64,000 bases of DNA, taken from the IMG/VR virus record IMGVR_UViG_3300034104_004745, positions 1 to 64,000 of that record, one strand, 5' to 3'. Positions 16,840 to 45,072 of this stretch are shown piece by piece. The notes below the pieces were generated by a model. It was not told where the DNA came from, searched no databases, and saw only the letters and a list, made by a program, of their open reading frames with translations. The position numbers were made by a program, and so were the translations under genes. The DNA comes from a virus. Taxonomy: Duplodnaviria; Heunggongvirae; Uroviricota; Caudoviricetes. Position 1 is the first letter of the stretch. Each line of letters starts with the position of its first letter.

Positions 16840-18081
16840 TTATTCAGCATCTTTTTCTACTTTATCATCAGACATTGATTCAACACCATCGATAATAAAT
16901 TTAGAACACTTAACAATCACATTTAAATTTACCATAATCTTTTCTTTATTTGCTTTCCATAAAGCTAAGTATGTTGGGTGTTGTGTAACTGGTAATTCAA
17001 AATACTTCATAATAGCATATGATACAGACTCAGCTTGAAGCTCTCTCATCTCTGATGTTTGAGCTGCTGGATCGTCAATGTAGAATGGAGATTTTGTCTT
17101 CCAGTGTAATAATTCGTGAGCAAGCTCGTGAGCAAGTACACTCGCTTCTGCAACACCTTCAACATCAGATGATAAATTAATATGTTCACCAGCACTAAAT
17201 CCTTTTTCCCCACCTTTTGCTGTATCTTTTGTTATTCGTATGTTTAAAGATTCCGCAAACGCTTTTAATCTAGTGGTCAATGCATCAGCAACTTCGCTCT
17301 TTTCATTCTCAGCAAACCATTTAGGTTGTTCTGGTATTTTACCTTCATCATTTAATGGATATGTGTCAGAAATATCATATACCTTACCCATAGAAAATCT
17401 GGTAACAGTTTGACCCTTCTTAACAGCATCGTCAACCTGGCTAAAATCAACACCTGTAGTGTCAACTTCTGCATTTGATTTAACTTGCATTGGGAACCAA
17501 ATCCAAATTGGTGTAGCGCCCTTTACAACCCCTCTATTGGTTTTCTTCCATGTGTTATAACCAGCAACTTTCTTAGCATCTTTCTTTTGTAGATAGATCA
17601 AGAATGAATTGGTTAAACTATAGTTATGGAATCTACTATAGAATGTTAAATAGTTTCTGATAGCAGCATCCATTGCAGCCTGATCTGTAGCATTAGCTAA
17701 GTCGTTAATGTACATATCAAGCTTATCCATGATTAAGTTCTTCTTTGATTGTTCAACATCAGTGTCTTCAATGAAATCCTCAAGCGTTTCTAGATCGTTA
17801 ATGATCTTTCTAAGTTTATTATGACCTTTAATTAAAACATTAATGGCTTCTAACTTATCATAATCACCAACCCAGTGTCCCAGATCTGGTTTCCAATCAA
17901 AGCCTAATTTTCTAAACTCTTTAGATAAACCCATGGTTTCTTTAACCCTGTCTCGCTTATCTTCTTTGTCTGAAAATATAATAATTTTCTTATTGGTATC
18001 GTCTTTTTTAAGGAAAATATCTTCCTTTAAGTTACTTTGTAGCGTTGGCCACTCGGATTCTTTAATTCTAATCTTTTTCAT
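16840..18081 (-). CDS. ArdC-like protein: N-terminal ssDNA-binding ArdC-N (DUF1738) domain plus a C-terminal zincin HExxH metallopeptidase domain.
   Basis: RFHNYSLTNSFLIYLQKKDAKKVAGYNTWKKTNRGVVKG matches the ArdC-N signature. AHELAHELLHW carries HExxH. Confidence 0.55.
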   Translation of the reverse strand: MKKIRIKESEWPTLQSNLKEDIFLKKDDTNKKIIIFSDKEDKRDRVKETMGLSKEFRKLGFDWKPDLGHWVGDYDKLEAINVLIKGHNKLRKIINDLETLEDFIEDTDVEQSKKNLIMDKLDMYINDLANATDQAAMDAAIRNYLTFYSRFHNYSLTNSFLIYLQKKDAKKVAGYNTWKKTNRGVVKGATPIWIWFPMQVKSNAEVDTTGVDFSQVDDAVKKGQTVTRFSMGKVYDISDTYPLNDEGKIPEQPKWFAENEKSEVADALTTRLKAFAESLNIRITKDTAKGGEKGFSAGEHINLSSDVEGVAEASVLAHELAHELLHWKTKSPFYIDDPAAQTSEMRELQAESVSYAIMKYFELPVTQHPTYLALWKANKEKIMVNLNVIVKCSKFIIDGVESMSDDKVEKDAE

Positions 18082-18587: not shown

Positions 18588-19238
18588 CTAGAACGGCATT
18601 TCATCTAGAACCCCATAGATTTCTGGTTTACTACCAAATCTATTGGTTACAATCTTATATATTGTACGTGTTAATTCAATATCATATTGAGCGTCATGAA
18701 GCTTAGACTCATCAATCTCAATACCTACAGCTGTAGCCACGCTCATCAATTTAAAGTTTGGCATAGCAACTCTTTTCTCTAAAAGATATTCAGATGCTAA
18801 TACCATAACATCCAATGAATTACCCCAGAAGTATGAATTAAAGAAATCATCTTTCTGGTGAATCTCATACCATCTTCTTAAAAATGGATTATCAAAAGAT
18901 GCGTTGTTATAACCAACTAAAAACATCTTATCTGTTTTTTTATACCTGTTGATATATCTATTGATCATCGCCATAAACTTAGCAAACATAGCCTCTGACG
19001 GTTCATAAGTAGCCAGCATTTCCATTGTTACATTAGATACCTCCAATGCTTTAGGTTCAATAACTGCGCCTTCGTATGGTTGCATCTTGAAGTTAAATTC
19101 TTCAACGACAGTTCCATCTATCTCGATACAACCTGAAAATTGATGGATAGCATTTGTGCGATAGTCTAACCCAGTTGTCTCCAGGTCAAAGAAAAGTTTT
19201 TTGATCATGATATTGTTTGTTAATGGTTGATGACCCAA
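18588..19238 (-). CDS. DnaQ-like 3'-5' exonuclease (DEDDh family).
   Basis: Exo I FFDLETTG, Exo II NASFDNPFL, Exo III HDAQYD. An alternative ATG at 19208 (MIKKLFFD) would remove the 19-nt overlap with the upstream gene. Confidence 0.65.
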   Translation of the reverse strand: MGHQPLTNNIMIKKLFFDLETTGLDYRTNAIHQFSGCIEIDGTVVEEFNFKMQPYEGAVIEPKALEVSNVTMEMLATYEPSEAMFAKFMAMINRYINRYKKTDKMFLVGYNNASFDNPFLRRWYEIHQKDDFFNSYFWGNSLDVMVLASEYLLEKRVAMPNFKLMSVATAVGIEIDESKLHDAQYDIELTRTIYKIVTNRFGSKPEIYGVLDEMPF

Positions 19239-19731: not shown

Positions 19732-20208
19732 TTAATTTTCTTTTGATTTGTCCCATTTAGCTTTTCTTGCTTCTGGCGACAATTGAACATGCTCCTCTAT
19801 TGTATGAGGAATGTTAACCCTAACACATGTTTGTTGTAAACGGCAATTCATTAAATAGTTGTTTATATACCCCATCATGTTGGCGCTACCTATAGGATTT
19901 GCTGAATGTACATAAACTTGAGGAATGGGGATTCCTGTCTCAATACTTTTGTTTACTAACCATTTGCAGCAATCATAACCAGTTTTTTCTTGGATATTAG
20001 AATAATCTAATTGATAGTTGTTTCTAACATTTGTATAATATTCAGTCATCGCCTCATCACCTAAATCATGATCTAAAGATATTGTTTCAATATTCTCTAG
20101 ACCATGATACATAATAGTGCTTACAAACGCTTCGTAATCCCTAACTACAGTCCAACCCTCAACAGTAGGGGTTCTTACGTCATCTAAATAAATGCTTATT
20201 CTTTCCAT
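19732..20208 (-). CDS. Hypothetical protein (158 aa) with SLDHDLG and HSANP motifs.
   Basis: ORF. The motifs suggest an enzyme, but no family was identified. Confidence 0.5.
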   Translation of the reverse strand: MERISIYLDDVRTPTVEGWTVVRDYEAFVSTIMYHGLENIETISLDHDLGDEAMTEYYTNVRNNYQLDYSNIQEKTGYDCCKWLVNKSIETGIPIPQVYVHSANPIGSANMMGYINNYLMNCRLQQTCVRVNIPHTIEEHVQLSPEARKAKWDKSKEN

Positions 20209-22513: not shown

Positions 22514-23167
22514 TTACCCCTCAATATTTTGAATATCATCTGTGTGATGATCTATCGGCCCCATCTCACTACCAATTTCTTTTTTCTTCAACAACTTAAT
22601 TACTTCGTGTAGATTGTACGGTTCAAAGTCTGGATTACCATCCATACCCACATCCATTCTTCTACCGTTACTAATCTTTTGATTGTGTGGTAAATGACAG
22701 TGCCCATGCAAATGAATGCGACCTTTTCTTAACCCATTCCAACTTGATATCGGATAGTGACAACATTCAATCGTTTCACCCATGTACTCAAACTGATCAA
22801 ACCAATTCACACTTTTAAATAACTTTCTAATATCACCACGATTTCTATCTATGTGATGATCATGATTACCTAATATCAAGTGTATGTTTTTACAAATCAA
22901 TCTGTTATGAAACTCTTCAATATTTTCAAATCCACTAAATGACCAATCACCTAAATGAATCAACACATCGTCTTGACCAACACAAGTGTTTATGTTATTA
23001 ACAATGGTTGCGTTCATTTTTTCTATTGTATCAAATGGTCTGGTCTGCGCTTCTGGTACATCACCATTGGGTAAACGCCACTTAGTCACACCACGACATA
23101 TGTTTTTATGCGAGTAGTGCGTATCGGATGTTATCCAAACTTTTATATTATCATCTAACTTTATCAT
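22514..23167 (-). CDS. Calcineurin-like metallophosphoesterase. The start is re-called to the ATG at 23167; the track begins at a TTG.
   Basis: Motifs SDTHY, GDWSFSG and GNHDHH plus a C-terminal HLHGHCH. The ATG overlaps the upstream stop (TAATG). Confidence 0.65.
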   Translation of the reverse strand: MIKLDDNIKVWITSDTHYSHKNICRGVTKWRLPNGDVPEAQTRPFDTIEKMNATIVNNINTCVGQDDVLIHLGDWSFSGFENIEEFHNRLICKNIHLILGNHDHHIDRNRGDIRKLFKSVNWFDQFEYMGETIECCHYPISSWNGLRKGRIHLHGHCHLPHNQKISNGRRMDVGMDGNPDFEPYNLHEVIKLLKKKEIGSEMGPIDHHTDDIQNIEG

Positions 23168-23670
23168 TAGCAAAAATCTGTTGATGAACTTACACGAAGC
23201 CCATCTATTATTAAATCATCATACTTTTCATCATCGGTCCAGAATGATCCATGTCCTTTGGCTCTTTCTTTTATTCGATATATTTCATTAACAATCAAAC
23301 CATCCGGTTGTCCCCATTCAAGTGCCATTGTTATAAACTCTTCAACATCCTGTTCCTCACCATACTCATCAACAACTCTACCAGAACGAATATATTCTAG
23401 TAAACTTTCTTTATCTGAATAGTATTTTTCTTTATGGAAGTTCCAGCAGAATTTCCACCCCATGCTTCTCTTACCAAGATGGACATTTGTATCTTCTAGG
23501 AACATATCCCATGGTGAAAACCATTCCCAATCTTTTCTTGGGCTAATGATTTTAAATCCACCCTCAATGTTTTCTGGGGATAAGTCAAGGTTAGTCACAA
23601 ACCCAATAAGAGTTTGTTTACGAGCTTCCATCTCCTCTTGTGTTGGTATTCTATAATAATTTGTGCTCAT
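23167..23670 (-). CDS. Hypothetical protein (167 aa).
   Basis: ORF. Confidence 0.5.
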   Translation of the reverse strand: MSTNYYRIPTQEEMEARKQTLIGFVTNLDLSPENIEGGFKIISPRKDWEWFSPWDMFLEDTNVHLGKRSMGWKFCWNFHKEKYYSDKESLLEYIRSGRVVDEYGEEQDVEEFITMALEWGQPDGLIVNEIYRIKERAKGHGSFWTDDEKYDDLIIDGLRVSSSTDFC

Positions 23671-23767: not shown

Positions 23768-24319
23768 ATGGGGATAAGCATTATTTTAACAGAGGCTCAA
23801 GTAGCTAACCTAGAGAAAAAAGTCGGTAAAATTGACCTAAACGAGTTCAACGTTTCGTTGTCTTGTACGAATATGACCTACGAGGCTTTAACATCTTTCT
23901 TAAACGGAAAAGAACAAAAGAAATTGGGTAACAACACAATAGTTCATATGATTAGAAACTGGGACACTAATGAAGAAGAGGTGGCAGTTAAATACTATGC
24001 CACAGATATTCTTAGTATTAATTCAGAAAATATTGTAACATTAAAAACCAATAACCATAATACAGCAACTACTAAAGCTAGATTAAACCAATTTTTAAGT
24101 TGCAGAGGCACTTACATATATCAAAAAAACCATGAGTGGTATATCAAAAATGAGATAGAAACTGTTGAATTTAGAGATGGTATACAAATTTTACCTGATG
24201 GTCAATTTCATATGCAAGGTCATATAGACCATAACAAAATACAAACGTATTTGGATAGGGCAAAATCATTGGATATTGATCCAAAATACAGAGAACTTTA
24301 TGGTTTATCTGACGATTAA
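23768..24319 (+). CDS. Hypothetical protein (183 aa).
   Basis: Plus-strand ORF in a divergent arrangement. Its 3' end overlaps the 3' end of 24316..27414. Confidence 0.5.
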   Translation: MGISIILTEAQVANLEKKVGKIDLNEFNVSLSCTNMTYEALTSFLNGKEQKKLGNNTIVHMIRNWDTNEEEVAVKYYATDILSINSENIVTLKTNNHNTATTKARLNQFLSCRGTYIYQKNHEWYIKNEIETVEFRDGIQILPDGQFHMQGHIDHNKIQTYLDRAKSLDIDPKYRELYGLSDD

Positions 24320-27300
24320 GATTTCATAGTAAACTTACTGTAATCACCGGTTTGGTGATTGTACTTATAAAATATATCTTGTAAGTTCTTAATGATATAG
24401 GTTTTACCTGAAAGATCTATTTTATTTAAAGTTACACCCTTAAATTGTGGATGTAAAACTACTTCACCATTTTGTTTAATCAACCCCCAAAGATTTTCTT
24501 CAGTTTTAACCGCAATATTACCGTTTTTGTCTATAGGACTATTTTCTACATATCTAGCCAAGAATGGAACAACATCGGTACACGAGAATATGGTTCTTTT
24601 AATACCTTTAGCTGATAATATATCAATGTGTTCTTGTTCACTAAACTTCCTAAACCCATGATCGATATACTCACAGAACATTGTGTAATATTCAAATAGA
24701 TCTTGTGAAATTTCTTTTAGACTATCAGTAAACATTTCTTTCATTTCTTCTTCAGATACATTATCAATTTTTCTGATCAACGCATCATTCATTTTAGAAC
24801 CGAAGAATGACATGAAATTTCTTTTAACATCACCACTAATCCTTCTAAAGTCATTTACAACTTTGAATATGGTTTTGTCATTAAACTTATCAGCGAACTC
24901 TTGACCCTTATCCATATCTGATGCTGTTTTTAATAGTTCAGCCTTGATTTCATTTGAATAGTTATCAAAATTTAATTCCCCACTAAGAATTGCATTAATA
25001 ATTTCTGGCCAACTACCTTTATCATTAATATTAAATCTTAATGCTGGGTTAGCATCATAAACTCTTTGTAAATTCTGTGGAGATAAATCTGATAATTGAA
25101 AATTATCACCATACCTATGAACACCTTGCGATGTTAATTGAGTAACCGGAAATCTAGTATTAATTAAGAAGTCAACAATTTGTGGGTGCAATCTCGATGT
25201 TGGTTTTTTATTACCGTGTCTATGGAAATCACCAAGAACACCACCTGGTCTGTAATCTACCGTTATCAAGGATTCACCTTCACCAAAATCATTTATACCT
25301 CTTAGTGATATTAACTTACTACCTGGTGTATTTGCTCTTGCACAGTGACCCATTCTTTCAGCTTCTTGAGAACAATAGTTTTTATGTAAGTTAACCCAAT
25401 AGTAACCAATACCTTTATCATTTCTATAATCAATAAACACATCACCCTTTTCAGTATAGTTAGATTCCTTTCTTGCTTCTAATGTATCATGCCATTCTTC
25501 TGCTTGAGTGTAAGCATCTTGAAATGACATTTGGCGAATGTTTAATTGCTCTCTTCTAGGCGCTCTAAACCAATGTAAAATATATTCATAGGCGCTCTTA
25601 TATCTTCGGTCCCAAACATTACTTCCCTCAGGCCCATCACTATTTAATAAACCAACAACGTATCTTTCTGGTTCTTCATCACTTGGTATTTGAGTTTCTT
25701 TAATGATTTCTTTTAAGAAACTACCAGCTATCCAAATCGATATCTTCTTACTTAACATATGGAACTCGTTTGCCCATTCATCGTTAAACCCTAAAACGTT
25801 TTTGATTGCTTGTCTCTTATCTGATTCAATTAATAACTCTTCAGCTAATGTGGTTGTTTGATTTCTGGTTTTTAATTGAGCATAGATCGGAGCATTCTTA
25901 TCTCTGATATTTCCAATTAACTTTTTTAAACCAGCTTCATATGTTCCCGCTTCAGCGTACGCATAACCATTTTCGTTTTTAAAATCATTAACCAAATCTG
26001 ATGCTGTTTTACCTTTTACAAGATATTTTCTAGCAATTAAATCATAGTAAAGATTTACACCATCTTTAAAACTTGCTTGTGGATTATCCTTTTTTGCTGT
26101 GTTACCAACATTAAAAGGATTTTTAGTTTTGATTGGTCTATCGTTAGGATTAGTACTAAGACCGCCCTCTAAAGTTAATTGAGCTAATGCCAATTCTGGT
26201 GGTACATATTTTCCATATCTCTTAAATACCCTTTCAGCAGCAACTGCCATCATCTCCCCACTCACTTGAGCACTAGGGTTTCTTAATCGAATAAAGTTGT
26301 CACATATTTTTTTATATGATTCAACACCTTCTCCAGTATTTAAATCTAAATCAGTAAAATCAATCGAACCTCCAGTTGTAACTGCAGGGTCAATATGTTT
26401 TTTAATATCGTCAGATGTAATATTTTTTGATTTTAAATCACTAATCAATTGTTTAACCATTTCTGTAGATATGGTTGCGCCGCCTAAAACAGTTTCAGAA
26501 TTTCCACTATCATAGTAGGTGCCGATAGATGAACCAAAATATTGCATTGGATCAACTCTTTGACCATTTTTCTTAAGTGTTAAGTGTAAGTGAGGTCCTT
26601 TTGAATTTCCTGAACCTCGAGCACCGACAGCACCTCCGGTTAATCCTATCACGTGACCTTGATTAATAACATCTCCAGTCTTTACATTTATACCAGATAA
26701 ATGACAATAACTACTTCTTAAGCCTTCAGCATGTTCGATTGATATACCATCACCACATCTTGAATCTAAAGAACCAGCAGCTATTACTTTACCATCTGCG
26801 ATTGCTTTAATTGGTGTACCAACTTTAGCTCCGATATCTATACCACCATGAATTCTATTTCCTCTTTTTTCATTAAAACCATGTCTAATATCACTTGTAA
26901 TTGGTACTGGTGTTATCAATACCATTTCATTTAGATCGGTAGCATTCGATTGGGCAGCAGCGTTTACTTCTGCTGTATCGTCATCAACAATATCTTTATC
27001 TTGTTTGTATTTGTTTACAGCCGCTGCTGTTTCTGGGCCAAATAATCCGTCAGTACCAAATTTAGGAAAACTGTAACCCAATAATTGTAAACCAATTTGT
27101 ACAGCTTCAACCCCTTGTTGTCTGGTCATTGAACCAAACTTTTGCTGTGTAATTGGAGATTTTATACTATCAAGTACCTTGTAGAAGTCATCAACATTAG
27201 CACTAATAAAATCTGCTTTATCTGCTATATCAGTACTTTTTTTCTCAACTGGAACATCTAATCCTGAAATAAAATCCTTAACTGCGTCAATTCCTTTATT

Positions 27301-27414
27301 TGCGTAATCCGCTCCTTTGGATATTAAATCATCCAAAACGTCTTCATTGATGTTCTCGTTTGAGAGTCTGCGTTTTAACCTTACAATCTGGTCTTCGTTA
27401 AATATAAATCTCAT
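24316..27414 (-). CDS. Multidomain peptidoglycan hydrolase (1032 aa): PG_binding_1-like domain, M23 zinc endopeptidase, a glucosaminidase-like domain and a roughly 500-aa C-terminal region of unknown function. Likely a virion-associated lysin.
   Basis: M23 motifs HGGIDIG...D and GPHLHL. PG-binding block GLFGPETAAAVNKYKQ. Glucosaminidase-like block AQLTLEGGLSTNPND...NPFNVGN. Confidence 0.75.
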   Translation of the reverse strand: MRFIFNEDQIVRLKRRLSNENINEDVLDDLISKGADYANKGIDAVKDFISGLDVPVEKKSTDIADKADFISANVDDFYKVLDSIKSPITQQKFGSMTRQQGVEAVQIGLQLLGYSFPKFGTDGLFGPETAAAVNKYKQDKDIVDDDTAEVNAAAQSNATDLNEMVLITPVPITSDIRHGFNEKRGNRIHGGIDIGAKVGTPIKAIADGKVIAAGSLDSRCGDGISIEHAEGLRSSYCHLSGINVKTGDVINQGHVIGLTGGAVGARGSGNSKGPHLHLTLKKNGQRVDPMQYFGSSIGTYYDSGNSETVLGGATISTEMVKQLISDLKSKNITSDDIKKHIDPAVTTGGSIDFTDLDLNTGEGVESYKKICDNFIRLRNPSAQVSGEMMAVAAERVFKRYGKYVPPELALAQLTLEGGLSTNPNDRPIKTKNPFNVGNTAKKDNPQASFKDGVNLYYDLIARKYLVKGKTASDLVNDFKNENGYAYAEAGTYEAGLKKLIGNIRDKNAPIYAQLKTRNQTTTLAEELLIESDKRQAIKNVLGFNDEWANEFHMLSKKISIWIAGSFLKEIIKETQIPSDEEPERYVVGLLNSDGPEGSNVWDRRYKSAYEYILHWFRAPRREQLNIRQMSFQDAYTQAEEWHDTLEARKESNYTEKGDVFIDYRNDKGIGYYWVNLHKNYCSQEAERMGHCARANTPGSKLISLRGINDFGEGESLITVDYRPGGVLGDFHRHGNKKPTSRLHPQIVDFLINTRFPVTQLTSQGVHRYGDNFQLSDLSPQNLQRVYDANPALRFNINDKGSWPEIINAILSGELNFDNYSNEIKAELLKTASDMDKGQEFADKFNDKTIFKVVNDFRRISGDVKRNFMSFFGSKMNDALIRKIDNVSEEEMKEMFTDSLKEISQDLFEYYTMFCEYIDHGFRKFSEQEHIDILSAKGIKRTIFSCTDVVPFLARYVENSPIDKNGNIAVKTEENLWGLIKQNGEVVLHPQFKGVTLNKIDLSGKTYIIKNLQDIFYKYNHQTGDYSKFTMKS

Positions 27415-27443: not shown

Positions 27444-27611
27444 TTATCCGTTTCCTATTTGATTTTTATCATCTTCATCAAATACACCAAATAAATCATC
27501 CCCTTTGTAATCTGGGTGGTTTTTCATCATATAATCAATTCCAACCACCCATCTCCAGGAGATTAGGCCGACAACGATGAACATTAATCCAAAAACTGGT
27601 AAGTATTCCAT
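27444..27611 (-). CDS. Small membrane protein (55 aa).
   Basis: ATG at 27611. A single TM segment. Fills the gap between neighbouring genes. Confidence 0.3.
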   Translation of the reverse strand: MEYLPVFGLMFIVVGLISWRWVVGIDYMMKNHPDYKGDDLFGVFDEDDKNQIGNG

Positions 27612-27615: not shown

Positions 27616-27978
27616 TTATTTTTTAGTTTTATTGTGTGGTGTTGGGTTTCCGTGTTCGTCTACCGCAACAAATACTATTTTATCAATAACAGTTATTACT
27701 CGATGCGTATCCTTATTTCTAACAATACATTTTATTGTAATCGATGTTGTTCCTAGAGTAATCATTTCACAACCGATCTCAATTATATCCCCTAGCTTGG
27801 CAGATGCAATGAAATCAATTTCACTCATTACTTTTGTTACCACATTAGGTGTCCCCAATTGGCAAATACAATAGATTGCAGCCTCTTCATCGATCCACTT
27901 TAACAGTTGACCGCCAAATAGTGTACCTCTTGGATTTAGGTCTTCTGGTTTAATTAGTTTCCTTGTCCTGAATATCAT
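27616..27978 (-). CDS. Acyl-CoA thioesterase (hotdog fold, YciA/4HBT-like).
   Basis: The pattern NPRGTLFGGQLLKWIDE...VVTKV...GD.IEI...GTTS aligns with YciA-type thioesterases. Confidence 0.65.
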   Translation of the reverse strand: MIFRTRKLIKPEDLNPRGTLFGGQLLKWIDEEAAIYCICQLGTPNVVTKVMSEIDFIASAKLGDIIEIGCEMITLGTTSITIKCIVRNKDTHRVITVIDKIVFVAVDEHGNPTPHNKTKK

Positions 27979-28573
27979 CAGTTAAAAATTTTAAAATCTT
28001 TTCTTTAATTCCACTTTGTTTTATACCCTCAGATCCACGAGGCGTCTCAACAAAATTATCTAATCCCCAATTATGTACAAATTCCACACTATAATCCATA
28101 CCGGTTTTACCCATCCTTAAATCATCAATTGAAACCCAGTGAGTTATTTCCGGATGATCGTGTAGGTATTGTTTAATCTCAATACATCTGGTTTGTTCTA
28201 AGTCCCATTCGCGAGACCATGGAAATCCAGCTTTATAATCTTCAATATACCAGGTGCAATGACCGAGATTTGGTGTAAATGCTATAGGCTTCTTAATGAT
28301 ACCTTGTTGTTCATAATATTCACCCATCTGTTCAACACTAGCCCATCTCTTCCAATCTGAACTAACAACAATCTCAGCACCAGTTTCTTCTAAAATAGAA
28401 TTCAGTACTTTAATAGATTTGTCATCAAAGTCATCAAAACGATATTCCAAAGGAATTTCGTCATTAGTCATGGACAATTTACGTCCACCCCACTTTGCTT
28501 GTTTTTTAAAACGTCCACCCCAATTATTGGATAAACAAATCACACCATCGTGATCAAGAAATATTACTTTCAT
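27950..28573 (-). CDS. HAD-superfamily hydrolase (putative phosphatase or nucleotidase).
   Basis: Motif I FLDHDGV (DxDxV), motif II VVSSD, motif IV SIDD. Confidence 0.5.
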   Translation of the reverse strand: MKVIFLDHDGVICLSNNWGGRFKKQAKWGGRKLSMTNDEIPLEYRFDDFDDKSIKVLNSILEETGAEIVVSSDWKRWASVEQMGEYYEQQGIIKKPIAFTPNLGHCTWYIEDYKAGFPWSREWDLEQTRCIEIKQYLHDHPEITHWVSIDDLRMGKTGMDYSVEFVHNWGLDNFVETPRGSEGIKQSGIKEKILKFLTDDIQDKETN

Positions 28574-28892
28574 TTTTTCTATTTTTAAGTATTAATCTAA
28601 ATGTACTTAAAATACCTAAAAACATGAATAGTTGAACTGGCCAATATGGAAGATTTTGTAGTTCATGAAGCATCCAAAAGATGTTCATGTTAAGCCATGA
28701 TAAGAGAACTAAATTACTGTCTCTTAATTCTTTCTCCCTTATAAAAATGTATATTGCTAGAAGTAGAGTGGGTAAAACCATCACTGTAGCCATCCATGTC
28801 CATTTCAACGTCCAAAAAACGTCTTTAAGTAGCCACAAAATTACATGGATTTCATGAATATTCAAAATTTTTTTATGAGTTTCTTTCGACAT
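28554..28892 (-). CDS. Membrane protein (112 aa, 3 TM segments).
   Basis: Hydrophobic ORF. Confidence 0.45.
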   Translation of the reverse strand: MSKETHKKILNIHEIHVILWLLKDVFWTLKWTWMATVMVLPTLLLAIYIFIREKELRDSNLVLLSWLNMNIFWMLHELQNLPYWPVQLFMFLGILSTFRLILKNRKNESNIS

Positions 28893-29304
28893 ATTCTAAC
28901 TGAGGTGTCCAAACCCCTTCAGATATAACTTTAGGTGCCCCGTTTCTATCGATCATAACCCATTCATAATTTACAATTCCCCAAGGTTCGAATTGTTCAA
29001 TAACATCCTGAAGGGTAAAACACTTACAAGAATAGATATCAAATTGAGCCATAGCAGGTTCATGATGATCCCAAATATGTATTGAAGAATGTGATGTAGC
29101 TAAGGTAACCGTTCCAGTTAAACCCTCATTACCAGGGTAGTCAACATAAACACTGGTTGGTCCTCCAACCACTTCCATCTTTACTTTGTGAACTAAATCA
29201 ACAAACCATTTATTAAGAACATCCACCTCTTTTGGTGGATTTTTAACCCAGATCTTCATTAGAAGATGTTGATGATACGGAACGAATTCTTCCTGCATTT
29301 GCAT
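28873..29304 (-). CDS. Pyruvoyl-dependent decarboxylase of the S-adenosylmethionine decarboxylase (SpeH/AdoMetDC class 1) family.
   Basis: GTVTLATSHSSIHIWDHHEPAMAQFDIYSCK aligns with bacterial AdoMetDC [27 protein letters not shown], including the self-cleavage Ser. Confidence 0.6.
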   Translation of the reverse strand: MQMQEEFVPYHQHLLMKIWVKNPPKEVDVLNKWFVDLVHKVKMEVVGGPTSVYVDYPGNEGLTGTVTLATSHSSIHIWDHHEPAMAQFDIYSCKCFTLQDVIEQFEPWGIVNYEWVMIDRNGAPKVISEGVWTPQLEYVERNS

Positions 29305-29353
29305 AATTTTTACTATACATATATATCATCAAAATTGTATTTTTCTGGGGTGG

Positions 29354-30046
29354 TTAATTATTATTTTTTTTGTACTTTTTGAAGTTCTTAACGAACTCTT
29401 TTTCATACTTTTTTAGCTCTTTAGTCTCCAATCCATTATATAAACCAGTAGACATAAAAGCTTGGATTTCATCGTCAATTATCTTCTTATCATCAACATA
29501 CCCCATTTTAACAAGCTTCTTTCTTAATTTCTCATAATGAGTTGGTTTAATATTATTGATTAAGTTTTTAACTTCGACTTGATAATCTTTATTAGTATAA
29601 TATAACCCATGTGCTATCTCATGATCCATGGTCTTTAGATCTTTACTGCTAGCACCGATCAAATACCATTTTTTTCTTGTCCCATCATTTTTATTTTGGG
29701 AATCAATCGCACAATAGAAATAAATGTTGTTCATTATTTCATCATACTCAGTTTCTTTGTAGAATACGTTATTTGCTTTCTCAACAATATTAGATGGGAT
29801 GTTATACCCCGCCCAATCTTCTGGGTATGTAAACACGTCTTTCTTCCAGAATTGTTTATAGTGGCGCATATATTCTTCCCAAGAAAAATACTTACCTCTA
29901 AACTTTTTAAATGGAGACTCGTAGAATTCTTGATAACGACAGAACAACATTGCTCTATCATAGTTGTCATCAACAATCACACAATAAATGGATGGATGTA
30001 CCTCTTTTACAACCCCTTTAACTAGAGGGTGTTTAATTTTAATCAT
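29354..30046 (-). CDS. Hypothetical protein (230 aa) with an HEIAH (HExxH) motif.
   Basis: ORF. Possibly a zincin, but weakly supported. Confidence 0.5.
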   Translation of the reverse strand: MIKIKHPLVKGVVKEVHPSIYCVIVDDNYDRAMLFCRYQEFYESPFKKFRGKYFSWEEYMRHYKQFWKKDVFTYPEDWAGYNIPSNIVEKANNVFYKETEYDEIMNNIYFYCAIDSQNKNDGTRKKWYLIGASSKDLKTMDHEIAHGLYYTNKDYQVEVKNLINNIKPTHYEKLRKKLVKMGYVDDKKIIDDEIQAFMSTGLYNGLETKELKKYEKEFVKNFKKYKKNNN

Positions 30047-30324
30047 CTTAAATGTTTAAACCTATCGGCTAAATTATTAATATAGTTTTCTTCATCAACT
30101 GAAAGTAAATCCCTACACTTCGCTAAATGATCAATACTATCCCAAAATCTTTGATCATGAATAGTCGGTCTACTGACACCAGTTCCTTTGTTTTTTTCCG
30201 CTTGAGTTGGTTCAATATCACCATCTTCAATTAACCATTTAATTAATTCTTCTCTTTCTGACTTGCTACATGAATCAAGATATTCACTTGGGTCGATGTC
30301 TACTTCTGCTGTAAATTCTGGCAT
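30043..30324 (-). CDS. Hypothetical protein (93 aa).
   Basis: ORF with a 4-nt overlap with the upstream gene. Confidence 0.45.
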   Translation of the reverse strand: MPEFTAEVDIDPSEYLDSCSKSEREELIKWLIEDGDIEPTQAEKNKGTGVSRPTIHDQRFWDSIDHLAKCRDLLSVDEENYINNLADRFKHLR

Positions 30325-30328
30325 AACT

Positions 30329-30661
30329 TTAAGTTAAATGTTTAATAATAATTGTTAGTGAAATCATTATCCAAATAGTGTTAAATACTATTAATGTTGG
30401 AAGTTCTTTTCTCATACTGGCCCATATTAGTAATGAAGATGTTATCAACGTTAAAAAATGTAAATACCAAATTTCAATACCATATAGTAAACCTGGAACA
30501 ATAATAATCGCTTTAGTCATCCAAGCGGCAAATTCGATTATATTATAATCGGTCCAATAAGATTTATCTTTAAACATTAATAAACGCTTAAAAATCTTTT
30601 CCCACCCAATAAAACTATAAAGGATTGTTATGTAAACAATATAGATTGTTAAATTGAGCAT
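30329..30661 (-). CDS. Membrane protein (110 aa, 3-4 TM segments).
   Basis: Hydrophobic ORF. Confidence 0.5.
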   Translation of the reverse strand: MLNLTIYIVYITILYSFIGWEKIFKRLLMFKDKSYWTDYNIIEFAAWMTKAIIIVPGLLYGIEIWYLHFLTLITSSLLIWASMRKELPTLIVFNTIWIMISLTIIIKHLT

Positions 30662-30696
30662 GTATTAATATAAGAAAAAAAGATGAAATAAAAAAA

Positions 30697-31026
30697 TTAG
30701 AGTGAGAAACTTTCACCACACCCACAAGTTCTGGATGCATTGGGGTTTACCCATTGAAAGCCCTTACCATTCAAACCGCTAGAGTATTGCAGTTCAGTAC
30801 CAAACAAATAAAGAACAGATTTTTTATCAATTACCACTTTAAGTTCTGGTAGATTAATAATCTCATCCATTTCAGTAATGTCTGTATCAAAATCCATAAC
30901 ATATGAAAGACCACTACACCCACCACCTTTAACCCCTACACGCAAAAAATGGGTACCGTTGTCGATACCCTCTTCTTTCATAACGTCTTTGAGATGTGTT
31001 AATGCTGTCTCAGTAATAGTAATCAT
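30697..31026 (-). CDS. A-type iron-sulfur cluster carrier (IscA/HesB/ErpA family).
   Basis: Near full-length alignment to IscA, including GGCSG and the C-terminal CGCGESF Cys ligands. Confidence 0.85.
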   Translation of the reverse strand: MITITETALTHLKDVMKEEGIDNGTHFLRVGVKGGGCSGLSYVMDFDTDITEMDEIINLPELKVVIDKKSVLYLFGTELQYSSGLNGKGFQWVNPNASRTCGCGESFSL

Positions 31027-34654: not shown

Positions 34655-36568
34655 CTAAAGAAGTCTTAATAGATCATCATAAAGGTTATCTTCTTTCCCT
34701 TCAATTTGTACACCGTTAATGATTAATGGGATCTTTTCTTTTGCTGTTGATTTGATAGAACCTTTAAAAGATAAAATTCTATCTTGTAGGATGACTAATG
34801 CTGAATCAAATCTTTCCGGTGGTTTAGCATTACAGAAATATTTTTCTTGTACACAACCTCTATCACGAGTGTCATATTCACAGGTTACTCTTTCATTACC
34901 GATAGGGCTATCTTCTCTAAGAGATACAATAATTGATTTTTCTTTATCTGCATACGATGCAACACAATGATGCATATGTTCACCCTCTTCAGTGTATTCA
35001 GCGTCAATCTTCAACAACACAGGATAATATATACCAATAATATCATTATTTTCGGTTTTGATTTTTATTGGGTTTTCAATAAGTTTTATTAATCTATCCT
35101 CGAATATGTATTTGATACTATATCCCTTTTTGATCGCTCTATCTAGTTTCGCTAATTCTAAATGTTCTCTATGGAAATCAGCAAGATTAGTTGCTCGCAT
35201 TTCAATATCAGGTAGATGTTTTCTTATTTTAATTAACATGTCTAAATGATCATTGAACGCACTAAATTGTGAACGAACAAGACTGTTACCAATTGTTACA
35301 GTATTCCTCTCACTATAAAGAGAACCATTATTAATTGTTTCGTTGATAAATTCATTTATTAATTTAAGTAAACAACTTTTTTCTGAATCTTTTATATCAT
35401 AAATGTGTTTATTATCTATTGCGTAATAGATGGGGGTATCATCACCAGGTATGTTTTTTTCTTTTTCTATTAACCAATATTCTTCATTTATGTTATGTAT
35501 GTATTTGTGTAAATCTACATAACCAAAATATCTAGCCAATAATATTAATCTACTAATATCTGTTTTAGGGAATTTATGTAACAATCTAATTGTACTCTTT
35601 GATTTAATACCAATTCTATCTAAGATTGCAGCCACTAATTTATTATCATTCTTTTTTAAGAATTTTTTAGTTGGGTAGGCTTCCATTAATAGGCGTCTAT
35701 ATTCATTTGGTACTTTAATTTTGTTAACCGCTATAAATGTTTCCATAACAATCGATAGTATTTTTTTTCTAGCACTTCCTTCGGTATTGGAAATGATATT
35801 AGCGTTATGTGGAAGTTTAGATAAGATGGTATGAAACAATGTTTTCATGAACTCATCATCATTAAAAATATCACTAGCTTCTTTGTTTACTGGGTGATGA
35901 CTTTCGGAATTATCACCAGAAAAGTGAAGAGTAACAGGCCCTACAGTTCTACCAAAAAATGATTGGAGAACTTGTGAAAAATGCTTGAAATTGTTCTGTC
36001 TTATTTTAGGTTTATCAGCACCTTCATAACTGATAATATTCCCAGTTTTAAAGTTTATTTTAAAACCTAATGCGGTTTTGATCTTCCTGAAAAATTTACT
36101 GTTTACTGTTCTTGTTTTTCTATGAGTATAAAACCTTACTGAAATGGTGTCCTCATCAACAGCAATATTTCTTTCATGTATTTCTACAGAAACTGCACTA
36201 AGTGGTCTACCATAGTGTTTTAATAAATGACGTTCTTTAGTGGTATAAAACGTTGGGTTTCTGTGATTCCAATTATCAAAGTTTAGTATTTCACCATCCG
36301 GTTCCTCACTATAAAAATATTTTGTGTTCTTCTTATTAAGTTTCTTTTTATTCGGAACCATCAATTGAAACATACTCTTTAACCTTGCTGAAGGCTTTCT
36401 ACCATCCTCCCTGTTAAAGAAATCAGCATCTAAAAAATCGACGTTTTCTAACCCAAGCTGAAACTTTTTATGGATTTCTTTTTCCTCCTTACTTTTGATA
36501 GAGGTATAATCTTTGTACGGCTCTATTCCATAGAACTGAAACCGCTGAGCTAATACGATTTTTTTCAT
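34655..36568 (-). CDS. PcfJ-like protein (637 aa; EGEHMHHCVASY motif).
   Basis: The C-terminal motif resembles the PcfJ signature. Paralogous to 33206..34603. Confidence 0.55.
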   Translation of the reverse strand: MKKIVLAQRFQFYGIEPYKDYTSIKSKEEKEIHKKFQLGLENVDFLDADFFNREDGRKPSARLKSMFQLMVPNKKKLNKKNTKYFYSEEPDGEILNFDNWNHRNPTFYTTKERHLLKHYGRPLSAVSVEIHERNIAVDEDTISVRFYTHRKTRTVNSKFFRKIKTALGFKINFKTGNIISYEGADKPKIRQNNFKHFSQVLQSFFGRTVGPVTLHFSGDNSESHHPVNKEASDIFNDDEFMKTLFHTILSKLPHNANIISNTEGSARKKILSIVMETFIAVNKIKVPNEYRRLLMEAYPTKKFLKKNDNKLVAAILDRIGIKSKSTIRLLHKFPKTDISRLILLARYFGYVDLHKYIHNINEEYWLIEKEKNIPGDDTPIYYAIDNKHIYDIKDSEKSCLLKLINEFINETINNGSLYSERNTVTIGNSLVRSQFSAFNDHLDMLIKIRKHLPDIEMRATNLADFHREHLELAKLDRAIKKGYSIKYIFEDRLIKLIENPIKIKTENNDIIGIYYPVLLKIDAEYTEEGEHMHHCVASYADKEKSIIVSLREDSPIGNERVTCEYDTRDRGCVQEKYFCNAKPPERFDSALVILQDRILSFKGSIKSTAKEKIPLIINGVQIEGKEDNLYDDLLRLL

Positions 36569-37921: not shown

Positions 37922-39052
37922 TTAATTGCTTAATGGCGCTTTTATTGCTGGATGTGATTGATAGTTTTCTAATATTACATCCTTATCACCAAATGAAAAT
38001 ATACCATCCATAACATATACTGTTGGTAGATCAAATGGTTCTCTTTTTATTTGTTCTTTGGCTTGTTCAATATGATTTTTATATAGATGAACATCCCCTA
38101 AGTTACCAATTAATTCATCAGGAACCATGTTCATTTCATCTGCAATCATTTTTAATAGTAAACCATATGATGCAATATTAAAAGGTAGTCCCAAGAATGT
38201 GTCCACAGATCTTTGGTTCCACATCAATGAGATAGCTCTTGTTGGTATATTGTGTTTAATCATTTCATCTTCAGTATAATATTGCGGAAGATTTTCCGTT
38301 AGACCTAATTTTTTATCCATTAAAAGAACTCTTTCAGTTTCATCTAAAACTCTTGTATAAACTTGAAATCCATAATGACAAGGAGGTAAAACCATTTGGT
38401 CTAATTCACCTACATTCCAAGCAGATACCATTAACCTTCTGCTATCAGGATTTGTTTTAAGCTCGTCGATTAGATTTTGAATTTGGTCAATAGTTTTATC
38501 ACCTTCAACGTATGTATCGTTTCCAGTTAATGGGTCTTTCAGTGTGGTTTTAATTAAAGTTTTGGTGTGCCATCCTCTCCATTGTGAACCATATATTGGG
38601 CCTAGCTCTCCCCACTCTTCTGCAAACCCATCATCAGTTTTAATTAGGTTGATAAATTCTTCTTGTGTTAACGGTTCTAAATCGTCTGGATTACTAAATA
38701 ACTTTTCAGTGTCATTATCCATACCCAATATATCTCCACACATATATCCATCAATAATTTCATTTATATATTTGGTATAGTTTTTATACGCGTCACCATT
38801 CCAAATGTTACATCCATTCATCACCAGATACTTGATGTTGGTGCTACCGCTTAAGAACCATATCAACTCAGTTACCATTGTCTTCCAAGCCATCTTCTTA
38901 GTTGTAAGTAATGGAAACCCTTGTGACATTTTATGACGAATTTGTCTACCGAAAACTGAAATAGTTCCAGTACCGGTTCTATCTGTTTTAACAACACCGT
39001 TATCTAAAATGTCCTGTAATAAATCTTGGTATTTACTATCTAATGTGTTCAT
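37922..39052 (-). CDS. thyA: Thymidylate synthase (ThyA family) with two lineage-specific insertions. The start is re-called to the ATG at 39052 (MNTLDSKYQDLLQDILDNG), which aligns with the ThyA N-terminus.
   Basis: The following motifs are present: TDRTGTGT.SVFG, ELIWFLSG.TN, LPPCH (catalytic Cys), LPFNIASY (Asn implies dUMP specificity), GDVHLYKNH and a C-terminal HPAIKAP. There are insertions of about 65 aa and about 30 aa relative to E. coli ThyA. Confidence 0.85.
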   Translation of the reverse strand: MNTLDSKYQDLLQDILDNGVVKTDRTGTGTISVFGRQIRHKMSQGFPLLTTKKMAWKTMVTELIWFLSGSTNIKYLVMNGCNIWNGDAYKNYTKYINEIIDGYMCGDILGMDNDTEKLFSNPDDLEPLTQEEFINLIKTDDGFAEEWGELGPIYGSQWRGWHTKTLIKTTLKDPLTGNDTYVEGDKTIDQIQNLIDELKTNPDSRRLMVSAWNVGELDQMVLPPCHYGFQVYTRVLDETERVLLMDKKLGLTENLPQYYTEDEMIKHNIPTRAISLMWNQRSVDTFLGLPFNIASYGLLLKMIADEMNMVPDELIGNLGDVHLYKNHIEQAKEQIKREPFDLPTVYVMDGIFSFGDKDVILENYQSHPAIKAPLSN

Positions 39053-39407
39053 ATAATCTTTTTTTATTTTCCCTTTCAGTATCGTGTGAGAATATTTCTT
39101 TATATCCAATAATTCGGTGAAATTCTTTGTATGCTTCAGGATGATAATTTTTTAAATGATCTAAACCATATTCATATTCAAATAAGGTTTGCTCATATCT
39201 TTTTTCTTTACTATCCCAACCATCTTCCTCATGTTCTTTATCAATAATTAATTGATTGATAAGATTTTGTAATGAATCTTCTTTACATGTGTTAATTGGA
39301 AGTGGTGGTGCAACCATATTGTCCGGTTTTCTAATTGCAACAAATGTTAAGACTATTATGATGAACGAACCAATAATAAGTCTAATAGCTGTGTCCTTAT
39401 TTTCCAT
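39036..39407 (-). CDS. Membrane-anchored hypothetical protein. The start is re-called to the ATG at 39407 (MENKDTAIRL).
   Basis: ORF with a TM segment. The track start at 39446 is upstream. Confidence 0.4.
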   Translation of the reverse strand: MENKDTAIRLIIGSFIIIVLTFVAIRKPDNMVAPPLPINTCKEDSLQNLINQLIIDKEHEEDGWDSKEKRYEQTLFEYEYGLDHLKNYHPEAYKEFHRIIGYKEIFSHDTERENKKRLYEHIR

Positions 39408-40134: not shown

Positions 40135-40491
40135 ATGCAATTAAGTGTTAATGGTCAAAAGTTTCCAGTTGAGTTAATGTCTTCTCCAGAAGATATCCAA
40201 AAGGGTATGCAAGGTAGAGATAATCTTGATGGTTGTATGGGGTTTAAATTAAAAAAGGGGCACCATACTTTCTGGATGAAAGACTGTTTAATACCGTTGG
40301 ATATTGTATTTGTTTTAAACGGGAGAATCAGTAAAATACATAGGGATTGTCAACCATGCTCTGGTGATGAATGTCAAAGATATCACGGAGCAGCTGATCA
40401 CGTTTTCGAATTCCCATCCGGTGATTGTGAAAGTTTTAAAGAAGGTGATCAAGCTAATCTTTATTTAGGTACAAAATTTAATCCAGCTTAA
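40135..40491 (+). CDS. DUF192 domain protein.
   Basis: GCMGFKLKKGHHTFWMKDCLIPLDIVFV matches the DUF192 core (GLM.R......GMLF....WM.n..ipLDi.F). Confidence 0.55.
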   Translation: MQLSVNGQKFPVELMSSPEDIQKGMQGRDNLDGCMGFKLKKGHHTFWMKDCLIPLDIVFVLNGRISKIHRDCQPCSGDECQRYHGAADHVFEFPSGDCESFKEGDQANLYLGTKFNPA

Positions 40492-40558
40492 GCTTCAACT
40501 TTTAATTTTTTTTCCTTATATTTCTATATAATAAACTATTTATTTAAAAAGAAATACT

Positions 40559-40732
40559 ATGGGATGCGGCTGCAAAAAAAAGAACAATGAACCCCAACAA
40601 ACTACAGAGGGGCAAGCTACAGCAACAGTTGTAACAGATAATCAAACACAACAACAACAACAACAAACACAAGAGCAAGTTGTACAGGTAGCTGTGGCTC
40701 TTCGTGAGATGATTGAAAATAAAGAACTTTAA
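40559..40732 (+). CDS. Small ORF (57 aa) beginning MGCGCKKKN and carrying a poly-Gln tract.
   Basis: ATG at 40559. N-terminal Gly-Cys-Gly-Cys, reminiscent of lipidation or metal-binding motifs. Followed by a weak hairpin and a T-rich tract. Confidence 0.3.
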   Translation: MGCGCKKKNNEPQQTTEGQATATVVTDNQTQQQQQQTQEQVVQVAVALREMIENKEL

Positions 40733-40808
40733 TATATAACGGGCGCCTTTTGGGTTGTCCGTTTATTTTCTTTATTTAAACATATATATAAATAAATAAA
40801 TATTTAAA

Positions 40809-41006
40809 ATGAAAAATAATACTAAACTAACGAGTGTCACCGTAGTGGATGACGTTTACAAAAAATTCAAATTAAAAACTATAGATGGATCTATTAACTT
40901 TCAAAAATTAGTTAACAGAGCAATGGATCTCTATAATAAGGATGACAATTTTCAAGAGAAAATAAATAATCACACTGGGTTATCAAACACCGGATCAAAG
41001 TTTTAA
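40809..41006 (+). CDS. Hypothetical protein (65 aa).
   Basis: ORF at the head of the glycosyltransferase operon. Confidence 0.4.
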   Translation: MKNNTKLTSVTVVDDVYKKFKLKTIDGSINFQKLVNRAMDLYNKDDNFQEKINNHTGLSNTGSKF

Positions 41007-41010
41007 TTTA

Positions 41011-43625: not shown

Positions 43626-43626
43626 A

Positions 43627-43923
43627 ATGGCTAAGAGTAAAACAAAAAAACCGTGGGTGGTTGACTCTATGTTTAGATTAGAAGCACCACAAAGTGCTAG
43701 TTTCATAAGCATACCAAATAATGGAACCTTTAAAGATTGTGAATGGTGTTTTCAATTTGATGATAGTGACCCATTTGTATTCGCATCAACAAAACCTTTT
43801 TATGATGGGAAAGACGCTAAAATAAGTTTCACACTTACAAACCAAACAAACACAAATTTGGTCTTTAAAGACTCTAATACCGGCAAAGAATTTAAAATAT
43901 TCGCAAGAGAAAAACAGTTATGA
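43627..43923 (+). CDS. Hypothetical protein (98 aa) within the glycan operon.
   Basis: ORF with tight coupling (1-nt gap upstream, 4-nt overlap downstream). Confidence 0.45.
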   Translation: MAKSKTKKPWVVDSMFRLEAPQSASFISIPNNGTFKDCEWCFQFDDSDPFVFASTKPFYDGKDAKISFTLTNQTNTNLVFKDSNTGKEFKIFAREKQL

Positions 43924-44543
43924 AAATCAGTTTCGCAATCACAGTATGTAATGAATTAGAAGAAATTAAAAAGTTGGTTCCCTTCTTAATAGAAAACAAG
44001 AGAGCCAATGATGAAGTTGTTATTTTATTTGATAGTAAAAATGGTGATGACCAAGTCATAGATTATTTGTTGCAGTTTAATAAATTACCAAATGTACAAA
44101 CCTGGAAAGGATTTGATTTCAATAACGATTTTGCGGAATGGAAAAATAAGTTAAATGAATATTGTACTGGTGATTATATTTTTCAATTAGATGCTGACGA
44201 ATTAATAAATGAGTATATGGTTAAAAATCTACATGAAATTATCGAATCAAATGAAGAGATCGATTTATTCTTTTTACCTAGAATCAATACAGTAAAAGGA
44301 ATAACCGAAGAGCACATAAGAAGATGGAGATGGAATGTGGATGATAATGGCAGAGTTAACTTCCCTGATTACCAGGGTAGAATATATAAATCTAATTTAA
44401 AATGGGGCGGTAAAGTGCATGAAAGAATTGTAGGTGCTAAGTTTTATTCTTTGTTACCAACAGAAGAAATCTATTCGCTATCACACCATAAAACAATTAG
44501 TAGACAAGAAAAACAAAATGATTATTATGAAAACATTAAATGA
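43920..44543 (+). CDS. Glycosyltransferase-like protein (GT-A/GT2-like, DxD motif DADE).
   Basis: N-terminal FAITVCNE and QLDADE resemble GT2. Weakly supported. Confidence 0.4.
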   Translation: MKISFAITVCNELEEIKKLVPFLIENKRANDEVVILFDSKNGDDQVIDYLLQFNKLPNVQTWKGFDFNNDFAEWKNKLNEYCTGDYIFQLDADELINEYMVKNLHEIIESNEEIDLFFLPRINTVKGITEEHIRRWRWNVDDNGRVNFPDYQGRIYKSNLKWGGKVHERIVGAKFYSLLPTEEIYSLSHHKTISRQEKQNDYYENIK

Positions 44544-45069: not shown

Positions 45070-45072
45070 ATT

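Follow-up and report, generated by a model that had tools for sequence, protein, structure and literature searches.

SpeD, the S-adenosylmethionine (SAM) decarboxylase (AdoMetDC), has homologs that have acquired new functions. These include an arginine decarboxylase (SpeDA type) from pelagiphage HTVC201P and the ornithine decarboxylases of phages, bacteria, and archaea (SpeDC) (PMC9992855, PNAS 2023; PMC10407285, JBC 2023). The HTVC201P enzyme, which carries the motifs Glu-Thr-Ser-His and Trp-Asp, has been proven to decarboxylate arginine and lacks AdoMetDC activity, and freshwater phage homologs resembling it are ornithine decarboxylases (PMC9992855). Li et al. 2023 place the phage ornithine decarboxylases in a clade defined by Thr-Ser-His and His-x-Trp-Asp (PMC9992855). 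In the Thermotoga maritima AdoMetDC, S63, H68, and C83 are needed (PMC10407285). Two glutamates contact the adenine (the one before the Ser) and the ribose (the one four residues after the His) of SAM (PMC1282579); these roles are inferred for class 1b enzymes by alignment. Standalone Swiss-army-knife HAD proteins of jumbo phages have been assigned, as a prediction, to RNA repair (Iyer et al. 2021; PMC7824862). Phage polyamine enzymes are already well documented, and the original prediction for the DNA analyzed here is out of date in calling such synthesis rare among phages (PMC9992855, PMC10407285).

We analyzed a window of 64 kb (the whole stretch of phage DNA available to us, from a genome of ~300 kb) and focused on ~3.4 kb, from 27616 to 31026, in which every gene is on the minus strand and closely packed with or overlapping its neighbors. 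The lineage is from freshwater (sample 3300020161; PMC7527133), comprises hundreds of protein clusters, and has related contigs of up to 333 kb. There was no match to near-identical DNA among deposited phages, and a tRNA scan found none. The genes are:

27616 to 27978, minus strand: hotdog-fold acyl-CoA thioesterase, YciA/ACOT type, 120 aa (PF03061)
27950 to 28573, minus strand: standalone Swiss-army-knife HAD phosphatase, 207 aa (PF18143 HAD_SAK_2)
28554 to 28892, minus strand: conserved small membrane protein, 112 aa (hydropathy; no Pfam match)
28873 to 29304, minus strand: predicted SpeD-derived pyruvoyl-dependent decarboxylase proenzyme, 143 aa (PF02675)
29354 to 30046, minus strand: conserved protein with an H142-E-I-A-H146 motif, 230 aa (orf230)
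30043 to 30324, minus strand: acidic protein, 93 aa (open reading frame; no family match)
30329 to 30661, minus strand: multi-pass membrane protein, 110 aa (mem110), a rare accessory gene (hydropathy profile)
30697 to 31026, minus strand: A-type iron-sulfur cluster carrier of the IscA/ErpA/SufA family, 109 aa (PF01521, TIGR00049)

The best overall explanation, which we hold with moderate confidence, is that the block is a stretch of variable accessory genes in the genome of an uncultured jumbo phage from freshwater, with independent genes for a probable ornithine or arginine decarboxylase, a predicted RNA-repair-type HAD protein, a thioesterase, and an Fe-S carrier. These are accessory genes of known kinds. 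The four families named in the original prediction were correct, all scoring above curated cut-offs (PF03061, PF18143 for the HAD protein, PF02675, and PF01521), and all four proteins retain their catalytic or ligand residues. The small membrane proteins reported between these genes are also there, as the hydrophobic open reading frames at 28554-28892 and 30329-30661. That prediction was open to refutation by hits below profile thresholds or by loss of the self-processing Ser of the decarboxylase; because the families are correct and the Ser is present (Ser71, below), neither applies.

The SpeD-like protein belongs to the AdoMetDC superfamily and has the class 1b alpha-beta-beta-alpha sandwich fold. 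It matched PF02675 with 40.8 bits (E 3e-10; cut-off 25), and its AlphaFold model (pLDDT 90) had the T. maritima AdoMetDC (1tmi/1tlu) as its top Foldseek matches (TM 0.75, E ~7e-5). Residues T70, S71, H72, H76, W78, D79, Q87, F88, D89, Y91, and C93 were invariant in 26 homologs, and S71, H76, and C93 were also invariant in 42 distant homologs. From these residues, we predict that the proenzyme would cleave itself between Thr70 and Ser71 to give an N-terminal pyruvoyl group, and that this group would act with His76 and Cys93 in catalysis. Relatives begin at the second Met, and therefore the true start may be at 29298. The only fusion partners of SpeD-like proteins were GIY-YIG homing endonucleases or unassigned tails.

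The SpeD-like protein is affiliated with the characterized neofunctionalized homologs and is a member of the Thr-Ser-His / His-x-Trp-Asp clade, as judged from sequence. It matched the HTVC201P arginine decarboxylase with 94 bits (38% identity over 110 residues, gapless), compared to only 35 bits for cyanophage SpeD. Pelagiphage homologs were its sole matches among deposited phages, a collection that contains none of the characterized ornithine decarboxylases (ATV46410, QMP83838, CAB5221556, CAB4131572, CAB4162964, WP_011448617, and others), and in a scan of genome contigs all hits were in MAGs of Pelagibacterales, HIMB59, Hyphomicrobium, and similar. Among 118 SpeD-like representatives (50% identity), 111 had Thr before the Ser and 82 had Asp in place of the AdoMetDC Pro. 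Between the His and the Cys, the clade has two residues more than validated AdoMetDCs do. Four residues (Gln, Thr, Phe, and Tyr) are diagnostic of ornithine decarboxylases (Fig. 8 of PMC10407285), and the SpeD-like protein has residues of these types in Thr70, Gln87, Phe88, and Tyr91, at positions that may or may not correspond.

In common with the SpeDA and SpeDC enzymes, the protein has the class 1b fold, the Ser/His/Cys catalytic set, the Thr-Ser-His cleavage motif, His-x-Trp-Asp, and the longer loop before the Cys, and, like them, is phage-encoded and aquatic. It differs from them in length (143 aa, compared to 117-122 aa), with a C-terminal extension (a strand at 125-132 and a helix), and in the residue two positions before the Ser, which is Ala instead of Glu. 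Its gene is carried by a jumbo phage, and in many cases a membrane protein gene specific to this lineage comes next. It also has His at position 80, where most relatives have Glu. The subfamily is 33-38% identical to the closest characterized enzyme.

Based on these comparisons, we believe that the product of the SpeD-like protein is likely putrescine or agmatine, rather than decarboxylated SAM. The enzyme would decarboxylate a basic amino acid, most likely L-ornithine (to putrescine) or L-arginine (to agmatine). Host enzymes could then convert the product to spermidine or homospermidine, resulting in more polyamine during infection. There was no match to spermidine synthase, agmatinase, or homospermidine synthase among the open reading frames of at least 200 aa in the window, which covers 64 kb of the genome. 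This reading would add a widespread lineage of freshwater jumbo phages to the carriers of the recently discovered ornithine and arginine decarboxylases derived from SpeD, and supports the notion that the step of polyamine synthesis enhanced by phages is the first one, not the one supplying the aminopropyl donor.

A conserved membrane protein is exclusively linked to this decarboxylase gene, a small new point. The gene at 28554-28892 overlaps the stop codon of the SpeD-like gene by 20 nt. Wherever it was found, it came immediately after a SpeD-like gene, and the genes beyond it fell into four different contexts. Its product had 50 homolog clusters (each with at least 57% identity), no match in a Pfam search, a single strong hydrophobic segment (residues 31-53), and seven invariant residues (K23, D24, K30, N60, N70, H76, and E77). 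One explanation, which we consider unlikely, is that the enzyme and the membrane protein form a new two-component module with an activity undescribed for the AdoMetDC fold; variants include a different amino-acid substrate, a non-polyamine product, tethering, and membrane-coupled production or export of an amine. Several features fit such a module: the pair remains intact across the four contexts and its stop and start codons overlap, polar residues within hydrophobic segments of the membrane protein are invariant, and the SpeD-like subfamily has its C-terminal extension and unusual His80. However, the membrane gene was in 17 of 34 distinct related loci, and because the other half of the related phages keep an intact and equally conserved SpeD-like gene, the enzyme does not need the membrane protein. 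The linkage could be plain co-inheritance of a small moron, and the Pfam search showed no transporter family. The exclusive linkage of membrane protein and decarboxylase is nonetheless a cheap lead that is open to test.

It is very unlikely that the SpeD-like protein is a genuine AdoMetDC providing spermidine-type polyamines with their aminopropyl donor, and the original prediction of decarboxylated SAM as its product is probably wrong. The PF02675 match, the fold, and the presence of the Ser, His, and Cys are all compatible with AdoMetDC activity, many phages encode a bona fide SpeD, and the ornithine decarboxylase clade itself includes one bona fide AdoMetDC, so clade membership does not strictly preclude that activity. 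In contrast, the protein scored 30.8 bits against the AdoMetDC equivalog TIGR03330, below the cut-off of 75.65, and the better match was to the HTVC201P enzyme. Both glutamates at the SAM-contacting positions are absent: the residue before the Ser is Thr70, and the residue four after the catalytic His is His80, at a position that varies in the family. In phages S-PM2 and phiYS40, whose AdoMetDCs are validated, Glu-Ser-His and an acidic residue after the Trp are retained. The phiYS40 enzyme shows that the 'invariant' Pro is not absolute. Compared to these and the T. maritima enzyme (1tlu/1vr7), with which it shares the fold (TM 0.75) and the Ser, His, and Cys, the SpeD-like protein has Thr-Ser for Glu-Ser and Trp-Asp plus a variable residue for the Trp-Pro-Glu of the His-Thr-Trp-Pro-Glu motif, and only 20-23% identity. 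Furthermore, all tested HTVC201P-like phage homologs failed to complement ΔspeD (PMC9992855), and the partner gene speE was not found among the open reading frames of at least 200 aa in the window, although a host enzyme could serve. Not every match to PF02675 should be taken as an AdoMetDC.

We also considered a role for the decarboxylase in thymidine hypermodification, sculpting amino acids on DNA, and rejected it: there were no matches of the 5-hmdU kinase or pyrophosphorylase type among the open reading frames scanned.

The HAD protein is predicted to be an RNA-end or nucleotide phosphatase of the standalone Swiss-army-knife type. It matched PF18143 with 69.9 bits (E 3.6e-19; cut-off 27.5), and motifs I (DxD, D7-x-D9), II (S71/S72/D73), and IV (D150/D151) were invariant in 30 distinct homologs. 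All 29 of the distinct related loci counted for this gene had it. It shares with the jumbo-phage proteins the Pfam family, the standalone architecture, the genomic setting, and the DxD, Ser, and DD motifs. The window also encodes cREC_REC, 2H, Metallophos, and RNase_T proteins; a further likeness is that its genome, too, carries cREC, 2H, and calcineurin-like phosphoesterases. In contrast to that setting, the window showed neither an RNA ligase nor a polynucleotide kinase. The protein would strip terminal phosphates, probably as part of a phage RNA-repair or counter-defense set. The family assignment stands, but the metabolic role first proposed gives way to predicted RNA repair (PMC7824862).

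The thioesterase matched PF03061 (4HBT) with 61.4 bits (E 1.1e-16; cut-off 20.6). The label YciA-like holds for the hotdog superfamily and not for YciA itself, as the YciA equivalog NF007970 gave 33.6 bits, far below its cut-off of 162, and the phage protein is a single 120-aa domain. The closest solved relatives are acyl-CoA hydrolases (1vpm, ACOT12, and YciA HI0827), and homologs with 58-60% identity, among them thioesterases of Xanthomonas and Stenotrophomonas jumbo phages, are in jumbo phages XacN1, Xoo-sp13, CM1, and RAS14. Conserved residues are D13, G18, F21-G22-G23, and D30, and the 4HBT domain and the conserved Asp/Asn/Gly-Phe-Gly-Gly motif region are common to YciA/ACOT-type (TE6) thioesterases and XacN1 ORF409. 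The protein probably hydrolyzes some acyl-CoA thioester.

The Fe-S carrier is an A-type protein. It matched PF01521 (E 1.7e-15), TIGR00049 (111 bits; cut-off 58.8), and Aquifex IscA 1nwb (E 3e-21), but fell below the equivalog cut-offs for IscA, ErpA, and SufA, with ErpA the nearest (99.7 vs 117). It shares the three Cys ligands of these carriers (Cys37, Cys101, and Cys103, all conserved) and is 40-57% identical to bacterial and huge-phage homologs; in contrast to the IscA, ErpA, and SufA systems, it is phage-encoded and has no adjoining gene for an Fe-S enzyme or scaffold. The carrier may hand Fe-S clusters to apo-proteins of phage or host. A link to the radical SAM enzyme encoded at 51927-52928 (PF04055), 21 kb from the block, is plausible.

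The block is a mosaic of loosely linked accessory genes and not an operon-like pathway. We counted gene presence across 41 distinct related loci, with denominators that vary by gene: the thioesterase was in 8 of 29, the IscA-type carrier in 29 of 39, the 93-aa gene in 34 of 39, and mem110 in 6 of 39. The four genes form no fixed unit. That they encode one biosynthetic pathway from one operon is very unlikely: the genes are co-directional and overlapping or close, no internal promoter or terminator was convincing (promoter-like sites were fewer than expected by chance), and orf230, the SpeD-like gene, and the HAD gene are always adjacent in this lineage, but gene presence is patchy, small genes are gained and lost between orf230 and the SpeD-like gene, loci L055 and L113/L114 have the SpeD-like gene without the HAD, thioesterase, and carrier genes, the XacN1 homologs of the thioesterase and orf230 are 10 kb apart with no SpeD, and the four activities are combined in no known pathway. 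Rather, we believe that these independent accessory genes are probably co-transcribed and that their products act separately. Adjoining phage genes that look metabolic need not be a pathway.

The open reading frames at 29354-30046 and 30043-30324 were not in the original list of genes. The first, orf230, invariably precedes the SpeD-like gene in this lineage and is possibly zincin-like. Just outside the block, there is another small hydrophobic protein at 27444-27611.

The block contains new members of already known families. The window is AT-rich (G+C ~32%) with coding chiefly on the minus strand, and the eight genes of the block run from 31026 down to 27616 in the direction of transcription, with overlaps of 4-29 nt between several of them:

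30697-31026, minus: A-type Fe-S carrier (IscA), first gene of the block
30329-30661, minus: membrane protein, 110 aa
30043-30324, minus: protein of 93 aa
29354-30046, minus: protein of 230 aa with an HEIAH motif
28873-29304, minus: S-adenosylmethionine decarboxylase (AdoMetDC)-fold protein, here called SpeD-like
28554-28892, minus: membrane protein, 112 aa
27950-28573, minus: HAD
27616-27978, minus: hotdog thioesterase, last gene of the block

All four families named in the original prediction were borne out, each above its curated Pfam cut-off (4HBT, 61.4 bits; HAD_SAK_2, 69.9; AdoMet_dc, 40.8; Fe-S_biosyn, 57.6), and the small membrane proteins said to be interspersed are the 110-aa and 112-aa products. 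The observation therefore stands, but its interpretation survives only in part: AdoMetDC activity is improbable, and a metabolic role of the HAD is less well supported than one in RNA-end processing.

The block is a mosaic of accessory genes, each gained or lost independently, on a conserved backbone, and is not a pathway operon. We compared gene presence over 41 distinct related loci, with denominators that differ by gene. The genes for the 230-aa protein (40/40) and the HAD (29/29) were always present, followed by those for the 93-aa protein (34/39), IscA (29/39), the 112-aa membrane protein (17/34), the thioesterase (8/29) and the 110-aa membrane protein (6/39). In addition to this patchy presence, the spacing between the genes for the 230-aa and SpeD-like proteins varied from 720 to 1309 nt among related loci, and the surroundings of the SpeD-like gene were quite different in more distant phages.

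The SpeD-like protein has the fold and catalytic residues of a pyruvoyl-dependent decarboxylase. The closest structures to its AlphaFold model (pLDDT 90, built on 26 homologs) were those of Thermotoga maritima AdoMetDC (TM 0.75), in which self-processing and catalysis need S63, H68 and C83 (PMC10407285). These correspond to S71, H76 and C93, which are invariant across close and distant homologs; the self-processing Ser, on which the proposed decarboxylase depended, is thus in place.

Contrary to the original prediction, the substrate is unlikely to be AdoMet. The protein scored 30.8 bits against the AdoMetDC equivalog TIGR03330, below the cut-off of 75.65. AdoMetDC has two Glu residues that touch its substrate: one, just ahead of the cleaved Ser, contacts the adenine, and the other, a little beyond the catalytic His, binds the ribose hydroxyls (PMC1282579). 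Both are replaced, by Thr70 and His80, and position 80 is freely variable among relatives (H, Q, N, S, R, D or A). Phages S-PM2 and phiYS40 have validated AdoMetDCs, and these retain Glu-Ser-His and an acidic residue after Trp. When 1.84 billion representative proteins were searched, 562 relatives emerged, and the motif was recognisable in 118 of the best 150. Among these 118, Thr preceded Ser in 111, Tyr lay two residues before Cys in 101, and the His-to-Cys stretch was 2 residues longer than that of AdoMetDC in 110; Asp occupied the AdoMetDC Pro position in 82, a Pro that is not absolute, phiYS40 being an exception that tempers the case against AdoMetDC.

Among deposited phages, significant matches were found only in pelagiphages. 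The homolog from pelagiphage HTVC201P aligned without gaps at 38% identity (94 bits), in contrast to only 35 bits for a cyanophage SpeD. The HTVC201P enzyme is an L-arginine decarboxylase without AdoMetDC activity, and freshwater phage homologs "similar to HTVC201P" are L-ornithine decarboxylases (PMC9992855); a bona fide AdoMetDC of phage phiN3 is reported inside the ODC clade, a caveat to any clade-based reading. Based on the TIGR03330 score, the replaced Glu residues, the motif features of the relatives and the HTVC201P match, we conclude that the SpeD-like protein is a predicted pyruvoyl-dependent enzyme, derived from SpeD, that would decarboxylate a basic amino acid. We give ornithine roughly even chances of being the substrate; arginine is possible but clearly less probable, some other substrate is somewhat less probable again, and AdoMet is improbable.

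Among window ORFs of at least 200 aa, neither a spermidine synthase nor any other polyamine enzyme was detected. Polyamine synthesis by a phage had been called rare; polyamine enzymes encoded by phages have already been well documented. A 166-aa protein (8331-8831, minus) weakly resembles acetyltransferases (PF13880, 29 bits), and because spermidine N-acetyltransferases exist in phages, a polyamine link is conceivable. Six metagenomic SpeD-like proteins (P0284, P0289, P0308, P0323, P0376 and P0389) continued, by fusion or readthrough, into GIY-YIG/SegE-like homing endonucleases, which suggests that homing endonuclease genes are often neighbours of phage speD-like genes.

Linkage to the gene for the 112-aa membrane protein is one new detail of the block. 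Homologs of this protein (50 clusters) were confined to this phage group, with no family match. Its gene was directly downstream of the SpeD-like gene and overlapped it in every case examined, and the contexts downstream of the pair were of four different kinds. The pair was a plus-strand cassette amid minus-strand genes in L055 (membrane gene 8387-8704), and was followed by glycosyltransferases in L113 (membrane gene 855-1178) and L114, and by the HAD in L115 (membrane gene 6001-6315). K23, D24, K30, N60, N70, H76 and E77 are its invariant polar residues. The SpeD-like enzyme does not require this protein, because half of the related phages lack it; a putative functional connection is worth testing.

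A role of the HAD in RNA-end processing is better supported than the metabolic role first assigned to it. The protein's Pfam family is PF18143, a HAD type named for "Swiss-army-knife RNA repair", and its DxD, Ser and DD motifs do not vary among 30 homologs. Iyer et al. described exactly this standalone family from jumbo phages and proposed that it is a phosphatase clearing linear terminal phosphates in RNA repair (PMC7824862). Four domains of RNA-repair or cyclic-phosphate-processing type are scattered across the window, consistent with such a HAD:

12686-13225, minus: 2H phosphoesterase, domain match
18588-19238, minus: RNase T-like exonuclease, domain match
19732-20208, minus: cREC_REC domain protein, domain match
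22514-23173, minus: calcineurin-like phosphoesterase, domain match

The 64-kb window showed no RNA ligase. It is the proposal of Iyer et al. together with these four genes that favours the predicted function in RNA-end processing.

The thioesterase resembles YciA/ACOT-type acyl-CoA hydrolases, as predicted, yet is far below the YciA equivalog cut-off. The A-type carrier scored above the TIGR00049 cut-off, and its three Cys ligands are all present. The radical SAM enzyme that it was suggested to serve is real (51927-52928; CAKGCSFC motif, PF04055), but its gene is 21 kb from the block. This enzyme, which also has a C-terminal Cys cluster, adjoins a 345-aa protein (together 50890-52928, minus) with ~47% identity to T4-like cyanophages P-RSM1, Syn19 and S-RIM14.

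The window is from an uncultured freshwater jumbo-phage lineage. Near-identical DNA was absent from 50,697 deposited phage records. Searching with the SpeD-like protein identified 57 IMG/VR contigs (73-93% identity) of up to 333 kb, and the identical protein is present in several JGI metagenomes. Large genomes of the lineage include IMGVR_UViG_3300027804_000001 (333 kb) and 3300032313_000682 (316 kb). One of the source samples, 3300020161, is a metagenome from a freshwater lake (PMC7527133), and the best cultured-phage homologs of the thioesterase and the 230-aa protein were in the Xanthomonas/Stenotrophomonas jumbo phages XacN1, Xoo-sp13, CM1 and RAS14. The assignment follows from the size of the relatives, the lake sample and the jumbo-phage homologs.

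Other genes in the window include:

1566-2357, minus: SprT-like protein
16840-18081, minus: ArdC-like anti-restriction N-domain protein
24316-27414, minus: 1032-aa protein with an M23 peptidase domain
34655-36568, minus: PcfJ-like protein

A thymidylate synthase homolog (37922-39109, minus; 395 aa) has a ~105-residue insertion relative to the Pfam profile, its residues 26-394 spanning profile positions 2-265. In the sole plus-strand island (40135-47762), where GC skew is reversed, glycosyltransferase genes (two GT4, three GT2) lie together with genes for DUF192, an NAD-dependent sugar epimerase and a methyltransferase; the island is probably a sugar-modification cassette. A 1951-aa ORF (57895-63750, minus), which has matches to coiled coils and carries a lower-baseplate motif at its N terminus, probably encodes a large virion or tail-fibre protein.
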